From the NCBI GenBank assembly GCA_965246885.1, contig OZ251992.1, forward strand, positions 1,920,001-1,984,000: a stretch of 64,000 nt of DNA, written 5' to 3'. The translations under genes and the position numbers were made by a program. The DNA comes from Abditibacterium sp. GTDB taxonomy: Bacteria > Armatimonadota > Abditibacteriia > Abditibacteriales > Abditibacteriaceae. The notes beneath the pieces were generated by a model. The model worked only from the letters and a program-made list of their open reading frames with translations, searched no databases and had not been told where the DNA came from. Within the stretch, counting starts at the first letter, position 1, and every line of letters starts with the position of its first letter. Positions 18,937 through 33,489 of the stretch are shown here, piece by piece.

Positions 18937-19437
18937 ATGGCCGAATCAACCACTTCCCCCGCGAAGAAAAGCAGCGCCGCCCAAACGATGCGCCGCGTGC
19001 AGCAACTGCACCTGATATTGGGCACCCTCTTCGCGCCGCTCATTCTCTTCTTCTCGCTGTCGGGCGCGCTGCAAACGCTCGGCTTGCACGAGCAAGAGAA
19101 AGCGGGTGGACACACGCCCGCGTGGATGGCGCAACTGGCGTCTGTTCACAAAAATCAGCAGTTATCGCGCGGCGAGGGACGCCCGCCCAAATCCGAAGGC
19201 GCGAGCGATGCGGCACCGAAGAAGAGTCCGTCCGCCGCCCTCAAGGATGAGGGGAATGGAGCGCGCGGCCCGTCGCCTTGGCCGCTCAAGTGGTTCGTGG
19301 TGCTGATGTCGATGGGCCTTGCCTTCACGACCGAATTGGGCGTATGGATGGCGTTCAAATACTCGAAGAACAAAGCGATGGTGTGGGCACTGTTGGCAGT
19401 CGGAACGCTATTGCCCCTCGTGCTCTTGTGGTTGTAG
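18937..19437 (+). CDS. PepSY-associated TM helix-like membrane protein
   Basis: LHLILGTLFAPLILFFSLSG helix, second conserved His (SVHK), two C-terminal TM helices. Confidence 0.55.
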   Translation: MAESTTSPAKKSSAAQTMRRVQQLHLILGTLFAPLILFFSLSGALQTLGLHEQEKAGGHTPAWMAQLASVHKNQQLSRGEGRPPKSEGASDAAPKKSPSAALKDEGNGARGPSPWPLKWFVVLMSMGLAFTTELGVWMAFKYSKNKAMVWALLAVGTLLPLVLLWL

Positions 19438-20751
19438 CGGGAAGGTGACCATCGCGCGCACGCTGTTCTCTATGGGAGTAAGCGCGACCGTCCACCCGTT
19501 CGTCGCGCAAATGGAGCGGCAGATCGCCAAGCCCAAGCCGTTGCCGCCAGTCGAGGAAACGCGCGCGAAGTCGGGTCGAAAGAATGGCTCGAACCACTCG
19601 TGCGGCACGGCGCCCTCTGGCAAATCGCAGTCGTTGTCTATCTGTAAAAGGGCTTCGGTGCGCGTCGAACCCAGTTCGACGCGCACGAGGGTGCCGGGTG
19701 TCGCGTATTTAGCGGCGTTCTCGATGAGGTTGCGCAGTAGCATTTCCACGTGCGCAGGCGGCGCATCGAGAGGGGTGTCGGACAGGGAACATTGAAGCGC
19801 AAGGCCCCGCGCCACAAAGGTGCCGCGCGCCCCATCGAGGGCGCGCTCGACCCAATGGGCAAGGTCGAGCGATTCATTGAGGGGCCGACTTTGGCGCATT
19901 TCCAAGGCGTTGAGTTGCAAGAGGTCGCGCACCAGCCCCGCGAGCCGCTCCGTTCCGACTTGGATGTGGGCGAGGGCTTGCTCGTGCTCCGCGATGGTTC
20001 GGGCGCGCGAGCGCGCCACGTCTATTTCGCCGAGCAGTATCTGAATGGGCGTGCGCAGTTCGTGCGAAGCCGCCGCATAAAAGCGCCCGCGCGCCGCCGC
20101 TTCGCGCTCCAAGCGGCCCAACAGGTCGTTGAGCGTGCCGGTCAAATGGCACATTTCGGCATCGCTCGAAGGCGATTGTAAACGCACTGGCGCGGTGTCG
20201 GTCGAGGCGTTCTGCGCTTGGGCTTGCGCCGCCAGTTTGTGAAGCGGGGAGAGCGTTTGGCCGACGACGAACCACGCGAGGAGCGCCGTCGCACCCACCA
20301 CGAGCGCGCCCAATTCCCACAACGCCCGCGCCCGCTCCCGCAGTTCGGCTTCAATGGGCGCCCATTCTCGCGCCACTACGAGCGTTTGCCTTCCGCTGGA
20401 AAGCGTGGCGGTGCTCCATTCGTCATCGCGGTCGGGCCAATCGGGAGCGTCGCGGCTCGATTGCCACAAGACACGGTTCTTCGCGTCCACGACCAACAGC
20501 GCTACACCCCCAACGGCCAGTTCCCCTTGGACAGCGCGGATGACGGCAACGAGCGGGCGGTGGAAGTGCGCTTCTTCGGCCACCTCGTCACGGGCGCGAC
20601 CGAGGGAGGTTTGCAGCGACTCCGCTACCCGCGCGAGGGCGCGTTGTCGCTCCTTTTGTTGAATGGCGCCTTCGCCCACGAGCAGGAGGAGCGCCACCAA
20701 CCCCGCGAAGAGAAGAGTCATGCGCGCGCGCATCGAGCGAAGGCCAGTCAC
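19408..20751 (-). CDS. Sensor histidine kinase (HAMP-HisKA-HATPase)
   Basis: ASHELRTP, NLIENAAKY, FEPFFR, GGNGLGLAI; start GTG 20751 or ATG 20733. Confidence 0.9.
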   Translation of the reverse strand: MTGLRSMRARMTLLFAGLVALLLLVGEGAIQQKERQRALARVAESLQTSLGRARDEVAEEAHFHRPLVAVIRAVQGELAVGGVALLVVDAKNRVLWQSSRDAPDWPDRDDEWSTATLSSGRQTLVVAREWAPIEAELRERARALWELGALVVGATALLAWFVVGQTLSPLHKLAAQAQAQNASTDTAPVRLQSPSSDAEMCHLTGTLNDLLGRLEREAAARGRFYAAASHELRTPIQILLGEIDVARSRARTIAEHEQALAHIQVGTERLAGLVRDLLQLNALEMRQSRPLNESLDLAHWVERALDGARGTFVARGLALQCSLSDTPLDAPPAHVEMLLRNLIENAAKYATPGTLVRVELGSTRTEALLQIDNDCDLPEGAVPHEWFEPFFRPDFARVSSTGGNGLGLAICRSICATNGWTVALTPIENSVRAMVTFPLQPQEHEGQ

Positions 20752-21416
20752 TAATCCAGCCCCAAACGGTAGCCGACGCCGCGCGCGGTGTGAATAAGCG
20801 GCGAACGGCCCCGGTCTATTTTGGCGCGCAGATAGCCGATGTAGCAGTCGAGGACGTTGTCGTGCCCCGCGAAGTCGTACTGCCACACATGGTCTAAAAT
20901 GACGGCGCGCGCCATCGTTTGCCCCGCGTGCCGCATCAGATATTCGAGCAAGGAGTATTCTGTCGCCGACAGTTCGATGTTCTTCTCGCCGCGCCGCGCG
21001 CGCCGCGTGCCGGGATCGAGCGTGAGGTCGCCGACGGACAAGCACGTCGAGCCGGAGTGCCCGCGCCGCAGGAGCGCCCGCATCCGCGCCAGAATTTCGG
21101 CGACGCGAAATGGCTTGCACACGAAATCATCGGCGCCCGCGTCCAGCCCCTCGATCTTATCTTCAAGGGTGTCGCGCGCCGTGATAAGCAGAACGAGCGA
21201 GCGCACGCTCGCTTCGCGCAAGCGGCGGCAGACCTCGAAGCCGTTCATGCCGGGGAGCATCACGTCGAGCAGAATAAGGTCGAAGGGAGTTGCGCGCGCC
21301 AAGTGCAACGCGCGCAAGCCATCCGCCTCGACGCGCGGCGCATAGCCCGCCTCGCGGCATGCTTGTTCCAGAAAGCGCGACACGCCCGCTTCGTCTTCGA
21401 CGATCAAAACATTCAT
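20751..21416 (-). CDS. OmpR family response regulator
   Basis: LIVEDE, LLDVMLP, GADDFVCKPF, winged helix ending HTARGVGY. Confidence 0.93.
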   Translation of the reverse strand: MNVLIVEDEAGVSRFLEQACREAGYAPRVEADGLRALHLARATPFDLILLDVMLPGMNGFEVCRRLREASVRSLVLLITARDTLEDKIEGLDAGADDFVCKPFRVAEILARMRALLRRGHSGSTCLSVGDLTLDPGTRRARRGEKNIELSATEYSLLEYLMRHAGQTMARAVILDHVWQYDFAGHDNVLDCYIGYLRAKIDRGRSPLIHTARGVGYRLGLD

Positions 21417-21447
21417 GCCCAAAGTTTCCCCTCTTGCGCGCGGCGGG

Positions 21448-21810
21448 TCAGTTCTTTTTAGTGGTTGCGCGGTGGGTGTTCTTGGCACCAGCGGCGGCTT
21501 CCTGCTTTTTCTCGATGCCCTCTTTGGCAGCGCTGGTAGCTTCGATGTCCGCGATTTTGCCGGTGTAAGCGTCCACCATGACTTCGCGTAGCGTGCGGCC
21601 CGAACGCACCATCACGCCGTATTGCCATTTGCCTTCCTCGTTTTCCAAGGTAGTGCGGGCGACGAGTTTGCCGGGAAAGCGCTGAAGAACGACCGCGTTG
21701 GCGCGGGCAACGCCCACTTTAGCATGCGGCGCGGCGTGCGCGGCGGACAAAGCGACTCCTGCAACAGTTATAGCCGCCAATAGGCGGGCGAGTGTGGTTG
21801 ATGTTTTCAT
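21448..21810 (-). CDS. Secreted PepSY domain protein
   Basis: Signal peptide, LENEEGKWQYGV...EVMVDAYTGKI. Confidence 0.8.
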   Translation of the reverse strand: MKTSTTLARLLAAITVAGVALSAAHAAPHAKVGVARANAVVLQRFPGKLVARTTLENEEGKWQYGVMVRSGRTLREVMVDAYTGKIADIEATSAAKEGIEKKQEAAAGAKNTHRATTKKN

Positions 21811-21867
21811 GGTTATGTCGGTAAGGGCAAGTGTGCCCTTTCCCGCACCCCAGTTAACGCCGCGCCC

Positions 21868-21885
21868 TTGTGAGTACCCTGAGAG
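21868..21885 (-). promoter_or_regulatory. Possible OmpR-type tandem direct-repeat box for the PepSY-RR-HK operon
   Basis: Minus strand CTCTCAG-GGTA-CTCACAA (11-bp period) upstream of a TTAACT hexamer. Confidence 0.3.
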
Positions 21886-21921
21886 TCGTGATAGAAGTTT
21901 CTCAGAGAGATTGTTGCCCAC

Positions 21922-22881
21922 TCAATGTCCATGCCCGCAATTGTTCCCAGCGTGCGAGTGGGTGGTGAGGGCGCAAAAGAGGGCGACTTCTTCTCCCGAT
22001 GGGCACAAACCCTCGACGTCGGTTTGGATGGTGGCGTGGCCGATGCCGTGCTCGTTGTGGAGCAGGGTGGCAAGGGCGCTCACGATGGCGGCGCACTGTT
22101 CGAGCGTGAAGTCGGGGGGCAAGGCGACGTGGCACGACAGGAAGTTGAGGCCATCGCCTACCGTCCAGATATGCAGGTCGTGGACGCCGCGCACGCAGGG
22201 AATAGCTTGCATCGCGGCGACGAGGACGGGCACGTCCACGTTCTTGGGCGTGCTTTCCATGAGGATGTCCGTCGCGTCGCAGACAATTCCCCACGCCGTG
22301 TAGAGGATGAACGCTGCTATAAGCAGCGACACGAGCGGGTCGGCATACACCCAGCCGGTGAAATGCACGACGAGGCCCGCGACGACGACGGCAGCACTGG
22401 AAAGGGCGTCGCCCAGCATATGCACGAACGCCGCGCGCGAGTTGAGACTGTTTTTGGCGTCGCCGGACAGAGCGGCGGCAATGACGGTGTTCATCACGAC
22501 GGCAACGAGCGCTACCCCAATCATCAGGCTTCCGCTTACCGCTTCGGGATGAAGCCAGTGGGCGATGGCTTCGATGCCAATCCACGCGGACAGCGCAACT
22601 AAAGAGACTGCGTTAAACAGCGCCGTCAAGATGGCGACGCGGTGATAGCCGAAGGTGCGCGACCCCGTCGCCGGGCGCGCCGCGACCCCAATGGCGTAGG
22701 CCGCCAAGCCGAGCGCAAGGGCATCGGAGAGATTGTGTCCGGCGTCCGACAAGAGGGCGAGGGAGTGGGACACAACACCTGCAACCGCTTCGACGACGAC
22801 AAAAGCGAGGGTGACGCCGAGCGAAACCCACATCTTGCGCCCGCTCGTCGGGCCGTGAACGTGTCCTGCGTGACTTGACAT
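21922..22881 (-). CDS. czcD: Cation diffusion facilitator (Zn/Co/Cd efflux, CzcD/ZitB-like)
   Basis: SLALLSDAGHNLSD, TFGYHR, HMLGD, HDLHIW, HATIQ; His-rich termini. Confidence 0.9.
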   Translation of the reverse strand: MSSHAGHVHGPTSGRKMWVSLGVTLAFVVVEAVAGVVSHSLALLSDAGHNLSDALALGLAAYAIGVAARPATGSRTFGYHRVAILTALFNAVSLVALSAWIGIEAIAHWLHPEAVSGSLMIGVALVAVVMNTVIAAALSGDAKNSLNSRAAFVHMLGDALSSAAVVVAGLVVHFTGWVYADPLVSLLIAAFILYTAWGIVCDATDILMESTPKNVDVPVLVAAMQAIPCVRGVHDLHIWTVGDGLNFLSCHVALPPDFTLEQCAAIVSALATLLHNEHGIGHATIQTDVEGLCPSGEEVALFCALTTHSHAGNNCGHGH

Positions 22882-23169
22882 TTTAAATTATTCCGATTTA
22901 ATGCCTGCGCGCGTCGCAACACCCGCGCGAGCCGGTTGTCTCTTTTCCCGTCAAGAGAAAAAGCATACAGACGAACCGCCCTTTGCTGTGCCACCGAAAA
23001 GTGTGCAGGGTATCTTCTGCGTGGAAGCGGTTCTCATCAACGGGCCGTAGAGGGGCGCAAGAGATTTGGCACAATCGGGAGGTTTCGCACAGGTTTTGCT
23101 CTACTCCTTGACGAGCGCGGCGGGGCAATGACAAGCTCCCCGTGCAGCAGGATATTTATCGCCAACGTT

Positions 23170-23928
23170 ATGTCTTTCTTCAACAAGCGCAGCAAAACGC
23201 TGCTCGGTGCCGGAGCGCTCGCTGTACTCGCGCTTTCCGTGGGCACCGCGCGCTACGCCAAAGGCTCCGACCATGCCGGAACCGTCGTCACCGCGCAAAC
23301 CCGCCCCGGAACGGACTTGTCCGATCTCCACATCTTCCCCAGCCCCACCAATCCCAACAACGTCGTTTTGGCGATGAGCGTCCACCCGCTCATTCCCGCC
23401 GGAACCGCTTCGGGCGCCGTGAGCTTCGACCCCGGCGTTTTGTATCAATTTAAGATAGACAACACCGGTGACAACATCGAAGACCTCGTCATCCAAGCGC
23501 GCTTCACGGGTTCGGGTGCGAGCCAACGGGTCTACATCGCTGGGCCAGTCAAGCCAACACGCACAGGAGTTATTACCCAAGCCGAGACGCCTTACGGGAC
23601 GACTGGCACCTTCGGCCAAGTGTTCTCACCAACCGCGAACGTTAAAGTTTTCGCCGGTATGCGCTCCGACCCGTTCTTCATTGACCTGTCGCAACTCTTC
23701 GCCATCTTGCCCGACCGCGCCGACCCGCTCAACGCGACTCCCAAGACCGACCCGGCCAAAGCGAATACCCCCCAAGTTCTGTCCTTTCGCCCACCGGGTC
23801 AAGCGCAGGACTTCCTCGCCAACTATAACGTCCTCGCAATCGTCGTCGAACTGCCCAAGTCGCAGCTAATCAGCGCTGGCACCGGCAAAATTCGCGTTTG
23901 GGAGACGACCAGCATCGCCAACAGCTAA
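23170..23928 (+). CDS. DUF4331 family secreted protein (N-terminal half of domain)
   Basis: Signal peptide then SDH; DLSDLHIFPSP, YQFKIDN, FAGMRSDPFFIDL, NVLAIVVELP. Confidence 0.75.
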   Translation: MSFFNKRSKTLLGAGALAVLALSVGTARYAKGSDHAGTVVTAQTRPGTDLSDLHIFPSPTNPNNVVLAMSVHPLIPAGTASGAVSFDPGVLYQFKIDNTGDNIEDLVIQARFTGSGASQRVYIAGPVKPTRTGVITQAETPYGTTGTFGQVFSPTANVKVFAGMRSDPFFIDLSQLFAILPDRADPLNATPKTDPAKANTPQVLSFRPPGQAQDFLANYNVLAIVVELPKSQLISAGTGKIRVWETTSIANS

Positions 23929-23948
23929 AAGCGACGCCAACACACATT

Positions 23949-24524
23949 ATGAAAAACCTTCTTGTTTTAAGCGCCGCTTGCGGAGCCTTGGCCGTTGCCC
24001 TCGCTGGTTGCGGTGGAGGTGGCAACAGCCCGATCATCAGTAGCCAAACATTTACCCAAACCGACCGCTTGGCGCGGCCCGTCGTCAACGAGGTCTTCGC
24101 CACGTTTGCTAATGGGCGTCATGACGTCAACGACAAAGACAACCCCACCGACGACTCTGGGCAACTCGCCAACGACATTCAAGGCTTCATGACCAGTCCG
24201 GCGGGCCGCTCGCCAGAAACGACCGCTGCGGTTAAATCTGTCCTTGTCCCCGACGTGATGATCGCCGATCTGTCGGTCAATAGTACCACTGCGGCTTATC
24301 TTGGCTCGGAGACTGGTGGTGTGACGGGTAGCAAATTTGGGGGCCGCGCGCTCACCGATGACGTGGTGGACACCTCTCTCGGCGTCATCTTCGGCCCGAC
24401 TATTTCCAAGTTGGGCTTGGCTCCCGACGACAAAAAAGAAATTCCCAACCTCACCACCGACAACGTCGGCCCCGGCGCCAAGAACTTCCAAACCAGCTTC
24501 CCCTACTTGGGCACGCCCAAATAA
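23949..24524 (+). CDS. DUF4331 family lipoprotein (C-terminal half of domain)
   Basis: Lipobox LAGC; QTDRLARPVVNE, GRALTDDVVD, DNV, FPYLGTP. Confidence 0.75.
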   Translation: MKNLLVLSAACGALAVALAGCGGGGNSPIISSQTFTQTDRLARPVVNEVFATFANGRHDVNDKDNPTDDSGQLANDIQGFMTSPAGRSPETTAAVKSVLVPDVMIADLSVNSTTAAYLGSETGGVTGSKFGGRALTDDVVDTSLGVIFGPTISKLGLAPDDKKEIPNLTTDNVGPGAKNFQTSFPYLGTPK

Positions 24525-24558: not shown

Positions 24559-24601
24559 AACGGGCGCGGGTGGAGTTTTTCCACCACCCGCGCCCGTTTT
24601 T
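24559..24601 (+). terminator. Intra-operon terminator-like hairpin
   Basis: AACGGGCGCGGGTGG...CCACCCGCGCCCGTT followed by TTT. Confidence 0.65.
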
Positions 24602-24608
24602 CGTTGTC

Positions 24609-25997
24609 ATGAACTCGCGCCGTTTCTTTCCCATTCTCGCCGCCGCCTGCACCCTTGGGGGCGCGCTTGTGTGGGCCAAAGTTTCCGGTTCGTCGCTTCT
24701 GCTTCCGCCGCCACCCGCGCTCTCGACGGCCCGCGTCCGCGCCCCTTATGACCCCAGCGCCGTTCACAAGCTCCTCGAATTCGACGCGAAACAAGCCCGC
24801 TCCGACCCCGGCAACGCCATCTTTGGGGCGAATCTGGCCGCCCAATACCTCGAAAGCTACCGCGAAACGGGCGATGCCGCCGACGCTACTCGCGCCGAAG
24901 CCGCCGCGCGCGCCTCGCTCAAAATCCGCACGCACGGCAACAGCGCCGCCTTCTTCGTGCTCGCCCGCGCCCTCTTGACGCAGCACCGCTTCGCCGAAGC
25001 CCTCGTTGCCGCGCGCCGCGCGTCGTTGGGCGATCCGGTTGGACTGCGCCAGTGCGCCGACATCGAAATCGAACTGGGCGACTACGCCGCCGCCGCGCGC
25101 GACATCAACGCCTCGCAAAAGCTGGTCGAAGCCAGCGCGCACGAAGTCGCCCTCGCGCGTGGCGACGCGCGCTCCGCCAAGCCCGACGAAGACCCCGCCG
25201 TTCTGACGCTCGTCGCGCGACTCCGGGAGTTGCACGGCGACACTAAGGGGCAACTTACGCTTCTAACCCGCGCCGCCCAACTCGCGGACGCCGATGCCGA
25301 CTTGCCCGCCGCGACCGTCGCGTGGTTTCATGAGCGATTGGGGCGTTGCCTGTTCATGACGGGCCGCTTGGACGAAGCCCGCGTCCAGTATCGCGCCGGT
25401 CTCTCCGTCTTCCCGCGCGACTACCGCACGCTCGCCGCCCTCGCCCATCTTTGCGCCGCGCGCGGCGATTGGAAGGGCGCGCTCGATTGGGGACAAAAAG
25501 CCGCCAACATCGTGCCCGCTCCCGAAACCCTCGCCCTACTTGGCGATGCTCATGCCGCGCTTGGCCAAAGCGCGCAAGCGGCGGCGCAGTACAAACTCGT
25601 TGAGCAAATCGGTGCCCTCGGCCAAGCGCAGGGCATTCTCTACGACCGCCAGCGCGCGCTCTACTACGCCGATCACGACCGCAACCCCGCTCAGGCCGTC
25701 GCCTTGGCACGCGGCGAGTTGCGAGTGCGGCACGATATCTATGCCGATGACGCGCTCGCGTGGACGCTTTGCAAAGCCGGGCGCGCTGGGGAAGCCGCAC
25801 CTTTCGCTGCACGCGCCTTGAGGTTTGGAACGCGCGATGCTTCCCTGTTCTTCCACGCCGGAATGATTGCCGCCGCTCTGGGCGACAAGGCGCACGCCCG
25901 TCTAAACTTGACCTGCGCCCTCCAAGTCAACCCCTTTTTCCACCCGACGCAACCCGCGACGGCGCGCGCCGCGTTAGCGCATTTGGCGGCGTCTTGA
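24609..25997 (+). CDS. Exported tetratricopeptide repeat protein
   Basis: N-terminal hydrophobic segment, Ala-rich TPR helices, DIYADDALAW, FFHAGMI. Confidence 0.75.
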   Translation: MNSRRFFPILAAACTLGGALVWAKVSGSSLLLPPPPALSTARVRAPYDPSAVHKLLEFDAKQARSDPGNAIFGANLAAQYLESYRETGDAADATRAEAAARASLKIRTHGNSAAFFVLARALLTQHRFAEALVAARRASLGDPVGLRQCADIEIELGDYAAAARDINASQKLVEASAHEVALARGDARSAKPDEDPAVLTLVARLRELHGDTKGQLTLLTRAAQLADADADLPAATVAWFHERLGRCLFMTGRLDEARVQYRAGLSVFPRDYRTLAALAHLCAARGDWKGALDWGQKAANIVPAPETLALLGDAHAALGQSAQAAAQYKLVEQIGALGQAQGILYDRQRALYYADHDRNPAQAVALARGELRVRHDIYADDALAWTLCKAGRAGEAAPFAARALRFGTRDASLFFHAGMIAAALGDKAHARLNLTCALQVNPFFHPTQPATARAALAHLAAS

Positions 25998-26000
25998 CCC

Positions 26001-27470
26001 ATGAATTCGCTTCGCTTCTGGTGCTTTGTTTGGTTCGCAGGGGTGTGGGGAACGCTTGCCCGACCTGCGAGCGCGCACCCGATGGGCAACTTTTCCATCA
26101 ACCACTACGCGCGCTTTGGCGTCGGCGTCAGGGAAATCAAGCTCCGCTATATCCTCGATTTCGCCGAAATTCCCGCCGCCGAGCGCATGACCCGCCTCGA
26201 TGCCAACGGCGATGGGCGGGCGAGCGACGCGGAAAAAGCGGCGTTTTTAAAAACCGAAGCGCCCACCTTCTTGGGTGGGCTGAGCCTAAAAGTAAACGGG
26301 CAGGCCCTCGCCCTCGCGCTGCTCTCGTCCGATCTCGAAGTGCGTCCGGGCGCCGGTGGTTTGCCGACGTTGCGGGTTTGGATGGATGCGCGGGCGCCGC
26401 TTCCCTCTGCCTCAACGCTTCGCGTTGAGTATAATGACGCCAATTTCGAGGGGCGCACTGGCTGGATGGAGATTCTCGCCCTGCCCGAAAAGGGTTGTGC
26501 CGTGCGCGACTCGGACGCCGGCAGCGTTGACCGCAGTCGCGGCCTGACTGTCTTCCCGCTCGATGCGGGAACTGTTGCGCCCCGCCAAAGCAGTGCAGCT
26601 TTCACCGTTGTTCCTTCGGACGCGGCATCCGCTTCGGCGAGCGCCGCTCCTCCGCCGAGCGCCCCCACGAGCAACGATAACACCCCGCAAAACCGCTTCA
26701 CGCAAAGCATCGCTGAAGGTGAACTCACCCCGGCTTTGGTGGCGTGGGGCGTTCTGTTTGCGCTTGGGTTCGGCGCTGTCCATGCTCTCTCGCCGGGACA
26801 CGGCAAAACGATGGTTGCGGCGTATCTTGTCGGCACGCGCGGCACGCCGCGCCATGCGGTTTTGCTCGGTTTGGTCGTAACCATCACCCATACCCTCGGC
26901 GTCTTCGCGCTTGGGTTCGCGCTGTTGTTCGCGTCGCGCTCCATTCTGCCCGAAAAGCTCTTCCCCGCCTTGAGCGCCCTCAGTGGCATGCTGATTTTCG
27001 GCGTCGGTCTGTGGCTGTTCCTGTCGCGCTGGCAAGCGCTCACCGCGCCGGGGCACACCCACTCCCACGACGATCATACCCACGAAAATGGCGGACATAC
27101 CCACTCGCACGGCGGGCACATCCACTCCCACGCTGTCCCCGAAGGGCCACTGACGATGCGCAGCCTCGTGGCGTTGGGGATTTCAGGCGGCATCGTGCCG
27201 TGCCCCGAAGCCTTGGTCGTCCTGCTGGCCGCCGTGAAGCTGCACCGCATCGGCTATGGCATGGTGCTTATCTCCGCTTTTAGTTTGGGACTCGCGGCGG
27301 CGCTGGTGGCCATTGGACTACTTGTGGTGTCAGCGCGCGGGCGGTTGAGTCGCGTACGCGGCTTGGACGAGAACTCCGCCCTCGTGCGCTGGTTGCCCGT
27401 TGGGAGCGCCGCCATCATCACCCTCATTGGCGCCATCCTCACTCTCCGCGCTTCGATGGGCGCCTTTTAG
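26001..27470 (+). CDS. RcnA/NicO-like nickel/cobalt permease with N-terminal exported domain
   Basis: AHPMGNFSINHY, EF-hand-like DANGDG, HALSPGHGK, THT, His-rich loop, GGIVPCP. Confidence 0.85.
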   Translation: MNSLRFWCFVWFAGVWGTLARPASAHPMGNFSINHYARFGVGVREIKLRYILDFAEIPAAERMTRLDANGDGRASDAEKAAFLKTEAPTFLGGLSLKVNGQALALALLSSDLEVRPGAGGLPTLRVWMDARAPLPSASTLRVEYNDANFEGRTGWMEILALPEKGCAVRDSDAGSVDRSRGLTVFPLDAGTVAPRQSSAAFTVVPSDAASASASAAPPPSAPTSNDNTPQNRFTQSIAEGELTPALVAWGVLFALGFGAVHALSPGHGKTMVAAYLVGTRGTPRHAVLLGLVVTITHTLGVFALGFALLFASRSILPEKLFPALSALSGMLIFGVGLWLFLSRWQALTAPGHTHSHDDHTHENGGHTHSHGGHIHSHAVPEGPLTMRSLVALGISGGIVPCPEALVVLLAAVKLHRIGYGMVLISAFSLGLAAALVAIGLLVVSARGRLSRVRGLDENSALVRWLPVGSAAIITLIGAILTLRASMGAF

Positions 27471-27533: not shown

Positions 27534-28274
27534 ATGAACCCCACCTTTCTCCTGCTGCTGCTCGGCGCGCTTGGTTTCGGCGTTGCCCACGCTTTTGAAC
27601 CCGACCATATGGCGGCGGTTTCCACCTTTGTCGCGGGGCGTCCCAAGCCGCGCGAAGCCGCGCTGTTTGGCGTGCGCTGGGCAATTGGACACGGGTTTTC
27701 GTTGTTCCTTATCGGATCACTCCTCTTTTTGTTCCGGCGCGCGGCGGAAAAAGCGCAACCCGCGCTGTTCGCGTCGGGCGTCTTAGACCGCTTCGTCGGA
27801 TTGGTGTTGGTGGGGTTGGGAGTGTGGACGCTGTGGCAAGTCGCTTCGAGCCGCGCCACTAAAGCGCACGCACACGGCCACTTTCATGATGGGCGCTTGC
27901 ACGCGCACGGCGACCACTCGCACGGCCCTGATGGGCACACCCACTCGCATCAGGGCGGCTTGGCTTCGCTGGGCATGGGCATCTTGCACGGCGCGGCAGG
28001 AACGGGCGCTTTCGTGGGTCAGTCCGTTGTTTCCCTATCGAGTTCTTACGCTTTCGTGTTCTTCTACACGCTGCTGTTTTCGGTCGGTGTGCTCTTGTCT
28101 ATGGCGGTGTATGCGGGCGCGCTCGGCGGCCTCATCACGACGTTTGAAAAGCGCGGTCAGCAGGCGCTCACCGCCGCGCGTGTGGTAACGGCGGTGCTGA
28201 CCTGCGCCATCGGCGCGTGCCTTGTGTCGGGCGTCGAACTTCCCGGCTTGCTCGATCACTTCGTTCATCAGTAA
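27534..28274 (+). CDS. NicO/UreH-like His-rich nickel permease
   Basis: HAFEPDH, WAIGH, HAHGHFH..HAHGDHSH..HTHSH, GILHGAAG. Confidence 0.8.
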   Translation: MNPTFLLLLLGALGFGVAHAFEPDHMAAVSTFVAGRPKPREAALFGVRWAIGHGFSLFLIGSLLFLFRRAAEKAQPALFASGVLDRFVGLVLVGLGVWTLWQVASSRATKAHAHGHFHDGRLHAHGDHSHGPDGHTHSHQGGLASLGMGILHGAAGTGAFVGQSVVSLSSSYAFVFFYTLLFSVGVLLSMAVYAGALGGLITTFEKRGQQALTAARVVTAVLTCAIGACLVSGVELPGLLDHFVHQ

Positions 28275-28325
28275 ACTATGCCCATACCGAACAACAGCCC
28301 CCTACTTCGTAGGGGGCTGTTGGTG

Positions 28326-29240
28326 TTACTGCGGCGAATCGGGCAGTGGGCCGCGCACAACGTGGTCGGGGTATTGGTCGGCGCGTGCCGCGCTCCACCG
28401 AAGCCACTTGACGTGTCCGTCGAAATACAGGTAGTTCGAGCCGCCCATGTGCCTATCCCACTTAATCCAGCCCGTTTGGTGCGCCGCGTCGGTTCCCACA
28501 AGCGAGCCTTCACCCGGCCATGTGTCGTAGTCATCTTGAGCGACGGAGTCATTGGGCGGTGCATTGAAGGGCGTGGCCGGGTTGCTGAATGCTTCCGAGT
28601 TGCGTTCGGAGAACATAATGATGCGCGCGTCGGGGAAGCCCGCGACGGCAGCATCGGTGGCGAAGCCATGCAAAGGCGTGTTCTCCATCGCGTAGCGGCA
28701 TGACTTGTGGGTGAAAATCGAGTTCAGCAGGTAAGATTCGATGGTCAGCCTGTTGGTTTTTGCGAGCGCCTGTTCGCTGTTGGGCGGCAACGTGTCTGTT
28801 GTGGATTGAATGGCGCCGTTGTAGTCGAGGATATTGGTCGCCGCGTTTGCCGAACGCGGTGTTGGATCGGACGGACAGTACCCGATTTGGCGGCTTTTGA
28901 GATACGGCTGGAAAAAGATAATCCAAGGCTTCTCGGCCTGACTATTTCCCGCGCCCCCCCCCGTGCACGTATCATCGGCAGTGGCGGGCGGAGGAGGCAA
29001 AGTGGGAATTTGGGTGCCATCGTCGAGAACCCAGCCCTCGTGGTGGTGGAACAGTTGGCCATCGTTGTCTTGCAAATACTGGGCGGCGGCCAAGCCCAGT
29101 TGTTTCATGTTGCTCATGCAGGAAGCTTTGCGCGCATTTTCGCGCGCGCGGGCAAAAGCGGGGAACAAAATCGCGGCAAGAATGGCGATGATGGCGATAA
29201 CTACCAATAATTCCAGCAAAGTGAAAGCGTGTTTGCGCAT
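28326..29240 (-). CDS. Prepilin-type N-terminal cleavage/methylation protein, DUF1559 with H-X9-DG motif
   Basis: [50 protein letters not shown]; internal HHH. Confidence 0.92.
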
Positions 29241-29246
29241 GGTGTC

Positions 29247-29274
29247 GGATTACGAACCAAAGTAATCGTAACAC
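29247..29274. promoter_or_regulatory. Putative NikR operator
   Basis: 28-bp pseudo-palindrome GGATTACGA-N10-TCGTAACAC (minus strand GTGTTA-N16-TAATCC), same span as the E. coli NikR site GTATGA-N16-TCATAC; between nikR and the DUF1559 start. Confidence 0.65.
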
Positions 29275-29303
29275 ATCTCATGCCATGCGGGGGCGAACGT
29301 TTC

Positions 29304-29768
29304 TTATTCCTGAGCGGAGTTTGCATCGCTCTCTCCAATGACGGTAACTGTTAATCGCCCATGCTCTACACCCTTGGTTCCAATCAGCGCGTCGGACAGA
29401 AAGCGGATGCGGTGGGCGTCGCCGCGCACCACCAAGACTTCGAGGCAGTTGCCGCCGTCCAAGTGAACGTGCAATGTGGACACGATAAGGTCGGCGCAGT
29501 CGTGCTGCACGTCGGTAAGGGTGCGCTGTAGCTGCGGCTTGTGGTGGTCAAAGAGGAGGGTGATGGTTCCGGCGATGACCCCGCCGCTTTCCTTGTGATG
29601 CTCGACCAAGTGCGCGCGGATCATGTCCGCCAAGGCGAGCGAGCGGTTCGAGTAGCCCTTTTGCAGCACCATCGTATCGAGTTCGCGGGCCAAGGCCGCC
29701 GGAAGCGACACACTAAAACGCACTGCGCCTTCGTTGGGGATGCGGGAGTTGTGGTGGTGAGAAGCCAT
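29304..29768 (-). CDS. nikR: Nickel-responsive transcriptional regulator
   Basis: RHH strand RFSVSL, GYSNRS, Ni ligands in DHH, HVHL, NCLEV; KGVEHG. Confidence 0.93.
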   Translation of the reverse strand: MASHHHNSRIPNEGAVRFSVSLPAALARELDTMVLQKGYSNRSLALADMIRAHLVEHHKESGGVIAGTITLLFDHHKPQLQRTLTDVQHDCADLIVSTLHVHLDGGNCLEVLVVRGDAHRIRFLSDALIGTKGVEHGRLTVTVIGESDANSAQE

Positions 29769-29817: not shown

Positions 29818-29990
29818 GCGCCATTCATCGGCGCGGCCCGGTGAACGGTTGGCGCGACCGCGCCATTCGTTGGCGTGACCGCGCCATTCGTTGGCGCGGC
29901 CCGGTAAACGGTTGGCGTGACCGCGCCATTCGTTGGCGCGGCCCGGTAAACGGTTGGCGTGACCGCGCCATTGACTGGCGCGGCCCGGTG
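29818..29990. repeat. 21-bp tandem array with 42-bp higher-order alternation (8 units)
   Basis: GCGCCATTCGTTGGCGCGGCC alternating with CGGTAAACGGTTGGCGTGACC. Confidence 0.9.
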
Positions 29991-31882: not shown

Positions 31883-32983
31883 TCATGTTGCTGGCGCCGG
31901 GGCACCTGCCGTTGCGTCGGTGCGGCGCAGCATTTGGCGCAATTCCGAGCGGTTTCCAGCGTATTCGAGGGCTTTTTCCTCGCTGATTTTGCCCGCCGCG
32001 TAGTGCTTTTCGAGAGCCATGTTCATGGTTTGCATCTTCCATTGCGGCCCGCCTTCCTTGATGGCTTGGTAGATTTGCCCGGTGCGGCCCTCCTCGATGT
32101 ATTGCGCGACTGTCGGACTAACGTTGAGGATTTCCAAGGCGCAGGCGCGGCCTTTGCCGTCTACGGTGGGAACCAGCTTTTGCGACATGATGGCGCGCAG
32201 GGCCTTGGCCATGCGTTGCTGGACGAGTTCCTTTTCGTGCGGCTGAAACATGGACAGGATGCGCTCCATTGATTCCGCCGCGCTGGGAGTGTGGAGCGTC
32301 GAAAAGACCAAGTGACCGGTTTCGGCGGCTTGGAGGCAGATGCCCATCGTTTCGGCGTCGCGTAGTTCCCCCACGAGGATAACGTCCGGCGCTTCGCGTA
32401 GCGCGGCGCGCAGAGCGGCGGCGAAGGACTTGGTGTCGAGGCCGACCTCGCGTTGCGAGACAAAGCAACCCCGGTCTTGGTAGACGTATTCGACGGGGTC
32501 TTCGATGGTAACGATGTGCCCTTTGCGCTCGGCGTTGATGAGGTCGAGCATCGCCGCAAGCGTGGTGGACTTGCCCGAACCTGTTGCGCCCGTCACGATG
32601 ACGAGGCCATCTTTATAGCGGGTAAAATCGGCCAGCACTTCGGGCAAGCCCAACTCGTCGAACTGGCGTATCTTCAGGTTCACGACGCGCAGCACAAGGC
32701 CATAGCCGCCCTTGACTTTGTAGATGTTAACGCGAAAGCGCGCGACATCGGGGATGTTGTACGACACGTCGTGGTCGGGGTTGTCTTGGAACGCCTCGAA
32801 CTTGGCGGGGGTCATGAAGCTCTTCACGACCGGCTCCAAGTCTTCGTGCGAAAGGGCGGGGTGGTCGAGTTTGCGCAGCGAGGAGTTGATCTTGACGGCG
32901 GGCGAGGCGCCCTCTTTCAGGAAAATATCGGACGCGCCCGCTTGCGAGGCGAAGCGGCATAAGCCCTCGAAATCAAAAGCCAT
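31883..32983 (-). CDS. pilT: Type IV pilus retraction ATPase PilT/PilU family
   Basis: ASDI, RFRVN, GATGSGKSTT, TIEDPVE, QREVG, PDVILVGELRD, AETGHLVFSTLH, MQTMN. Confidence 0.88.
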   Translation of the reverse strand: MAFDFEGLCRFASQAGASDIFLKEGASPAVKINSSLRKLDHPALSHEDLEPVVKSFMTPAKFEAFQDNPDHDVSYNIPDVARFRVNIYKVKGGYGLVLRVVNLKIRQFDELGLPEVLADFTRYKDGLVIVTGATGSGKSTTLAAMLDLINAERKGHIVTIEDPVEYVYQDRGCFVSQREVGLDTKSFAAALRAALREAPDVILVGELRDAETMGICLQAAETGHLVFSTLHTPSAAESMERILSMFQPHEKELVQQRMAKALRAIMSQKLVPTVDGKGRACALEILNVSPTVAQYIEEGRTGQIYQAIKEGGPQWKMQTMNMALEKHYAAGKISEEKALEYAGNRSELRQMLRRTDATAGAPAPAT

Positions 32984-33012
32984 AATGAAGGTAGCAGTGT
33001 CCCAAACCGCGC

Positions 33013-33489
33013 TTACGAAGTGCCAGAAATGCGCCCGCGTTGCCAAGACAACCACGCACCCGCGCCGATAAGGGCGACCGAGAGTAGTGCCAATATCCAC
33101 GTGAGCGGGGAGTCAGGCGCATCGGCCAAGCGGACACCCGCCGCGAGCGCGCTTTGAAGGGTGAAGTGTTTAGCCAAAAGCGTCAAAAACGCGCAAAACC
33201 AGCCCGCGCCCGACAGGATAAGCCCCAAGTCAAACAAGGGCCGCACCCGAAGCGCGCCAAAGCCAAACCACAGCGCGAGGGCAAGCGGGATGGGCGTCAT
33301 TAAGACGTAAGCGCGTTCGGCGGGAACGCTTCCGCTCGCCAAGCCAAGGCCAGTCACGATGGAAAAGGTGAACAGGCCAGTCGCCAGAGCGATGAGGGCG
33401 TAGTTGAAGTTCGCTTCTTCGCGGACAGTGGGGCGCGGCGCGGGCGGGCGGGCGGGCGCACCGTTGGGATCGTTTGGCGCAAGCAACAC
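33013..33489 (-). CDS. Hypothetical 4-TM membrane protein
   Basis: Four hydrophobic helices, fills the gap upstream of pilT. Confidence 0.6.
   Translation of the reverse strand: MLLAPNDPNGAPARPPAPRPTVREEANFNYALIALATGLFTFSIVTGLGLASGSVPAERAYVLMTPIPLALALWFGFGALRVRPLFDLGLILSGAGWFCAFLTLLAKHFTLQSALAAGVRLADAPDSPLTWILALLSVALIGAGAWLSWQRGRISGTS

Follow-up and report, generated by a model that had tools for sequence, protein, structure and literature searches.

What does a nickel-responsive repressor control when the gene beside it encodes a pilin-like protein? The question is raised by a 64,000-nt stretch of an Abditibacterium sp. genome (the window; source genome G000), in which nikR lies directly upstream of a gene for a prepilin-type DUF1559/H-X9-DG protein, hereafter the HHE protein. 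The initial annotation had described this pair, a 63-bp gap holding a 28-bp site (29247-29274) that ends 6 nt before the ATG, and the motifs LFHHHEG and FTHKSC in the prepilin-type protein. These observations hold: both families score above their profile cut-offs, the gap and the site are confirmed from the sequence, and both motifs are present.

Organization of the nikR locus

The regulator gene (29304..29768, minus strand) encodes a 154-aa NikR that is recognized above cut-off by NikR_C and by NCBIfam PRK04460 (151.7 bits; cut-off 105). Its RHH strand reads VRFSVSL, and its Ni-site motifs QHD...LHVH...NC align with the solved NikR chains 2bj1 and 2ca9; we take the aligned residues to have the His/His/His/Cys nickel-ligand roles. 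The HHE gene (28326..29240, minus strand; 304 aa) follows. Upstream of nikR, a 21/42-bp tandem repeat array (29818-29989) separates it from a divergent ABC-transporter gene, and 2 kb from nikR lies an ORF (31883-33100, minus strand) that, judging by its motifs, we presume to be a PilT-type retraction ATPase.

Facing the nikR/prepilin pair is a plus-strand cassette. It begins with DUF4331, identified by profile and present as two ORFs of uncertain start (22936..24524) in a split that is identical in three related loci or genomes (L002, L011 and G053), and continues with a TPR protein assigned by family profile (24570..25997) and two NicO-like His-rich membrane proteins. Family profiles identify the first of these as a NicO/RcnA-like Ni/Co transporter with an extra N-terminal domain (26001..27470); its gene contains a His-rich tandem repeat (27057-27132). 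The second, which carries the motif HAFEPDH and convergently approaches the HHE gene (27534..28274), matches NicO below cut-off and is a candidate inner-membrane nickel permease. The two convergent genes are separated by a perfect 12-bp hairpin (28293..28321), a likely terminator. Just past the DUF4331 end of the cassette, positions 19408-22881 encode a ZitB-like CDF exporter, a PepSY protein and a two-component pair.

The HHE protein belongs to a conserved pilin-type subfamily

Scans of the window protein against Pfam and NCBIfam returned pilin-type families only: N_methyl PF07963 (31.5 bits; cut-off 21.2), together with TIGR02532; SBP_bac_10/DUF1559 PF07596 (31.6 bits; cut-off 23.3), over residues 31-55 only; and, at the C terminus, H-X9-DG TIGR04294 (26.8 bits; cut-off 19), whose motif (28416..28451, minus strand) is family-wide and not specific to HHE proteins. 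The His triplet is far rarer, being found in 1 of the 58 prepilin-motif ORFs of G000, the window gene itself. A search with the variable domain yielded 1130 relatives among 1469 candidates, and the 80 matches listed included 67 close loci from Abditibacteriota, Armatimonadota, Verrucomicrobiota and Phycisphaerae. Median identity is 59% to 57 orthologues, as against 27% to the 57 paralogues in G000; among paralogues it is 27-29%. An index-free search also recovered a compact HHE family, which beyond one full-length representative consists mostly of fragments, followed by a drop to weak matches. The HHE protein thus defines a discrete subfamily that crosses phyla.

Nine residues are invariant in 150 of 150 aligned sequences: H66, H67, E68, E103, E156, D236, D237, D239 and E244. 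The first three, with H65, form the cluster H65-H66-H67-E68 (29037..29048, minus strand), a set of candidate metal ligands, and the three aspartates belong to a QDDYD motif (28524..28538, minus strand). H65 is present in 147 of the 150 and is Arg in the other three, all from nikR-bearing genomes; H178 of FTHKSC (28707..28709, minus strand) is present in 149. Because the first locus search had been seeded with FHHHEGWV, the search was repeated in metagenomes with seeds elsewhere in the protein. The 80 loci so obtained comprised 76 with HHHE, 2 with RHHE, 1 with HHHD and 1 with QHHA.

The pilin helix and its Glu5 are conserved, and the sequence matches pilin helices. The residue before the prepilin cleavage site is Ala, not Gly, as is common among the G000 paralogues. 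A structural model from 150 sequences is confident (pLDDT 93.9, pTM 0.92); an earlier one, built on 52 sequences, could not be trusted at the His cluster (pLDDT <50 at residues 65-67). Each of the top 15 fold matches of the 150-sequence model is a type IV pilin or pseudopilin, at weak scores (best Z 4.6, rmsd 3.5, 94 aligned), with ComP in second place (Z 4.4, rmsd 3.5, 96 aligned), and neither model gave a match above Z 5. Foldseek with the 52-sequence model found nothing with E ≤0.001, and matches in the ESM Atlas led only to unnamed or DUF1559 clusters. The predicted structure is consistent with a pilin core bearing a large insertion that starts with the His cluster.

A predicted NikR operator overlaps the likely -10 element

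The annotation had read the 28-bp site as an operator by reference to the E. coli-type box (GTATGA-N16-TCATAC). At the window site this box has mismatches at 4 of 12 positions, while the box GTGTTAC-N13/14-GTAACAC has only two (12 of 14 positions agree), and the E. coli-type reading was dropped in its favour. The latter is the predicted NikR box of delta-proteobacteria, located upstream of nik(MN)QO and nikKMLQO; the consensus given in its source is itself a prediction (PMC545781). By box comparison and matrix scan, the site is thus a predicted NikR operator that reads GTGTTAC-N14-GTAATCC on the minus strand. It is one of three sites with two or fewer mismatches to the delta-proteobacterial box in the 3.55-Mb genome. 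For the scan, we built a matrix from 12 training sites that adjoin nikM, a TonB receptor gene or nikR, chosen to avoid circularity: 11 came from genomes without an HHE prepilin gene and one from the nikM promoter of G049. The window site tops the scan of G000 at 29.5 bits (runner-up 17.9), and within its set of 58 prepilin genes the next upstream score, that of a paralogue, is 6.0 bits. No autoregulatory box was found upstream of nikR in the window.

The promoter element also had to be reassigned. TACTTT, originally proposed as the -10 hexamer, matches TATAAT at 3 of 6 positions, compared with 4 of 6 for TACGAT, which is also preceded by TG. The resulting candidate extended -10, TGtTACGAT (29265..29273, minus strand), lies within the upstream half-site, and this half-site is GTGTTACGAT in 10 of 10 boxes picked for display. 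Three of these ten have a TTGAC hexamer 16-18 bp upstream of TACGAT; the window copy has no canonical -35, and no complete sigma-70 promoter was recovered there by a generic promoter scan. TACGAT is the likely -10, and its coverage by the predicted operator would fit what a repressor requires.

The box tends to accompany nikR

If the box is a NikR operator, how closely does it follow the regulator? A nikR gene is directly adjacent in 2 of the 67 genome loci. In the genome search for nikR, which took in 50 of these loci, the gene was found in 8 carrier genomes and none was seen in the other 42. A box of at least 15 bits precedes the HHE gene in 5 of the 8 nikR-bearing genomes and in 1 of 41 others, making 6 of the 64 genome-set orthologues scored once L024, L057 and L062, matches without a gene start, had been omitted. 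The three nikR-bearing genomes without a strong 28-bp box have a weak one (L003), a 27-bp variant (L005) or none, with an ECF promoter instead (L064). Among the metagenome loci, nikR lies within the stored flank of 14 of 80, and by a hand tally in which kin are not independent, a 27- or 28-bp box is present, among loci with sufficient upstream DNA, at 11 of 13 with nikR in the flank versus 7 of 59 without. Because of this kinship, p-values for such contrasts would be overstated. A further Armatimonadota set of 30 loci with short flanks, reduced to 24 by removal of 6 duplicates, contains nikR in 2, a 28-bp box at 1 of 22 and a 27-bp box at 3 of 22.

The box is also found where nikR is encoded elsewhere. 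In G027, G047 and G049, the site before the HHE gene is the best genome-wide match to a pattern partly derived from these same sites; the same motif precedes nikM in G049 and nikR in G047. All three genomes have tandem NikR-type boxes at FmdE-domain genes and at an operon that also encodes a second prepilin, a short one from a different family. Tandem boxes are seen at an unnamed secreted protein there as well (L106:5482-7916, L107 and L108). In a quick protein tree that left out L062, L065 and L066, boxed HHE genes are found in two or more distinct regions. Co-conservation of the His triplet, nikR and the operator, as envisaged in the initial annotation, is borne out by the HH-E core, which is invariant, and by the co-occurrence of box and nikR; direct adjacency is infrequent, and the first His can be Arg.

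A TonB receptor occupies the prepilin position in a relative

The annotation had further suggested that the pilin-like protein acts in place of a TonB-dependent receptor, and both a same-locus swap and a complementary distribution agree with it. In G053, of the same genus, DUF4331, TPR and the two NicO genes are arranged with nikR in a matching layout, and the prepilin slot behind the same box is occupied by a TonB receptor gene together with genes that, judging by their sequence, resemble exbB and exbD. Across the 31 genomes surveyed in the class, nikR is present in 15, a TonB receptor follows nikR or a box in 10, and NikM is found in 7. The HHE gene is present in at least 3, each time beside nikR (two of these are L001 and L002); this is a lower bound, as scoring in five of the genomes covered only 89 candidates. 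All 12 nikR genomes in which no HHE gene was found have a receptor, NikM or both, whereas the three carriers found have neither. These three belong to one genus and one clade, so that the swap pattern amounts to about one event. One other receptor above cut-off is retained in G059 and G061.

In G000 (92.7% complete), neither a TonB plug match nor NikM was found; secretin gave 6 matches and T2SSF gave 9. No urease or NiFe hydrogenase turned up either, and the only nickel users found are nickel-pincer enzymes, namely LarC and two LarA-family genes. One LarA-family gene is convergent with another DUF1559 paralogue (G000:C1:1189776-1191746). LarC is present in 39 of the 50 carrier genomes, a count without a baseline, and Ni-SOD, considered as a bridge from ECF control to nickel, matched in 0 of 50, with a control that matched nowhere either. 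The sole cobalamin riboswitch found in G000 (C1:3011030-3011139, plus strand) lies ~180 bp upstream of a prepilin paralogue at 3011322, and the sole TPP riboswitch (C1:852282-852399, minus strand) lies ~90 bp upstream of another at 852191.

Neighbouring cassettes and ECF-type control

Recurrent neighbours connect the family to metal transport and to a second mode of control. Around the 67 loci, we found DUF4331 in 21, HupE/UreJ in 14, a cupin anti-sigma in 10 and DUF4198, which we take to be NikK-like, in 6, and none at 13 control loci. No recurrent cluster links a pilus assembly gene to the HHE gene. In 4 of 104 further loci (L164, L169, L186 and L262), the HHE gene is immediately upstream of nikM/cbiM, three times after the TPR gene of a DUF4331 cassette; we assume that MHIPD marks NikM rather than CbiM. 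HupE/UreJ, NikM and NicO seem interchangeable within the DUF4331 cassette. An unnamed membrane protein of ~215 aa (L035:5803-6447, L012, L026, L150:17031-17687 and L203) stands beside the HHE gene at some loci, and by eye it has a look-alike after the boxed TonB receptor in L150; it is a possible further nickel-regulon member.

An ECF-type promoter, GCATCC-N15-17-CGT, lies ahead of 12 of 64 genome orthologues (background 0.9%) and 10 of 72 metagenome ones, as well as DUF4331 operon heads and the sigma gene itself. The cassettes often include a SigK-like sigma and a ChrR-like cupin anti-sigma. In L004, L008, L041, L052, L056, L059 and other Verrucomicrobiota loci, the sigma gene is autoregulated and the promoter is GCATCC-N16-CGTA; a 456-aa protein without a Pfam match accompanies this cassette. 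The motif resembles that of ECF18, and ECF19s19 has a soluble ChrR-like anti-sigma, according to PMC7826278. That source describes ECF18/19 members as responding to redox, light and solvents, and ties one ECF18 member, RpoP, to Ni/Co resistance. The promoter and the sigma/anti-sigma cassettes thus point to redox or general stress control, and this ECF-controlled half of the family weighs most against a role confined to nickel, although ECF cassettes themselves carry HupE/UreJ, DUF4198 or NikM.

Discussion

We consider it reasonably probable that the HHE protein is repressed by NikR, captures nickel by means of a pilin scaffold and fills the role of a TonB-dependent receptor. The most serious competitor, which we hold to be unlikely, accepts nickel binding but keeps the protein out of any pilus. 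Its pilin helix would anchor it in the inner membrane, where it would supply NicO, HupE/UreJ or NikMNQO as a periplasmic helper in the manner of NikK/NikL, and nickel would cross the outer membrane via porins. Such an accessory would account for the HHE genes co-oriented with HupE/UreJ and DUF4198 operons, for those directly before nikM and those coexisting with it in G027 and G049, for the lack of assembly genes in recurrent clusters, and for the Ala before the cleavage site, common as that is among paralogues. It is harder to reconcile with G053, which has an outer-membrane receptor cassette in the slot and still retains both NicO genes, with the conserved Glu5 and pilin helix, and with the B12 and TPP riboswitches of receptor-less G000, which also precede prepilin paralogues.

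Could nickel instead not be the family's specific cargo? The HHE protein might belong to an ECF18/19-type regulon (redox, light, Co/Zn/Cu) as a stress-induced surface protein that binds metals broadly and came under NikR in some lineages only. The ECF motifs at orthologues, operon heads and the sigma gene, the stress responses of ECF18/19 members in PMC7826278, and the 42 carrier genomes showing no nikR all speak for this; the nickel-type genes inside ECF cassettes, the Ni/Co link of RpoP in that same source, and the presence of NikR boxes in two or more regions of the tree speak against it, and we regard it as improbable. Least probable is a box that controls nickel export, or that is the hitch-hiking remnant of a lost receptor operon, next to a structural or catalytic His cluster. 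An RcnA-like gene and a CDF exporter are indeed nearby, and the many invariant acids could make a structural metal site or a catalytic one. The box, however, is kept right before the HHE gene in three phyla-level groups, even where nikR is elsewhere, and its overlap with the candidate -10 is what repression by abundant nickel would call for.

Under the nickel-capture reading, Ni-loaded NikR would bind the box over the -10 when nickel is ample and repress the HHE gene, which is very probably a nickel-starvation gene. H66, H67 and E68, with H65, H178 and conserved acids, would then probably bind nickel or a nickel chelate outside the cytoplasm. After prepilin processing, the protein may be built into a type IV pilus or pseudopilus that brings its cargo via a secretin to the periplasm, a step to which we give slightly less than an even chance. 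The neighbouring NicO-like permease, or HupE/UreJ or NikMNQO in other hosts, would carry nickel across the inner membrane and supply LarC/LarA. Since G027 and G049 hold both the HHE gene and nikM, the HHE protein is no replacement for this inner-membrane step.

How does this arrangement compare with known systems? It shares box type, length and regulator family with the delta-proteobacterial NikR regulon, and relatives have this box ahead of nikM and of TonB receptors. The targets there are nik(MN)QO and nikKMLQO (PMC545781), while here the target is a prepilin-type protein. The NikR-controlled TonB receptor cassettes of the same genus (G053, G054, G055, G058, G060 and G062) have the same box and the same nikR, and in G053 also the same locus and slot; they comprise a beta-barrel receptor with ExbBD-like energisers, presumably for nickel as judged from the box alone, as opposed to one pilin-like protein. 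With other proteins of DUF1559/SBP_bac_10 (PF07596) and H-X9-DG (TIGR04294), the HHE protein shares the prepilin helix, the DUF1559 start and H-X9-DG, and it is set apart from them by cross-phylum conservation, a metal-type motif and a named regulator. A pilin head that binds a cargo would also link the HHE protein to minor pilins with a ligand, ComP among them, to the 'fishing rod' pilus proposed for planctomycetes (PMC12078418) and to Akkermansia MUL2 (PMC13174399), all of which concern DNA or glycans. Our literature search found no NikR-controlled or metal-capturing pilin or DUF1559 protein, of which subscription journals, RegPrecise and supplements may hold one, and no ligand for DUF1559 proteins in the literature searched; the available part of one study reports their expansion in Planctomycetes and a membrane fractionation and gives no ligand (PMC8567305). 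Regulator and box are of a known kind, and a pilin serving as a metal receptor would lie outside known systems.

DUF1559 proteins are encoded by dozens of genes per genome, as the 58 prepilin-motif ORFs of G000 illustrate, and the HHE member would give them a testable cargo: it offers a named regulator, a small and cheap ligand, candidate ligand residues that can be mutated singly, a model of high confidence and a relative in which a TonB receptor has naturally changed places with it. More tentatively, DUF1559/H-X9-DG proteins may serve as exchangeable receptor subunits, each specific for its cargo, on a retractile type IV filament, and this filament would take over the role of TonB-dependent transport in Abditibacteriota/Armatimonadota and PVC bacteria. 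Nickel would be received by the HHE protein, and vitamins by the G000 paralogues behind the B12 and TPP riboswitches. The HHE protein itself opens 'fishing rod' nutrient uptake by pili to direct experiment and would represent a new route of metal entry across the outer membrane.
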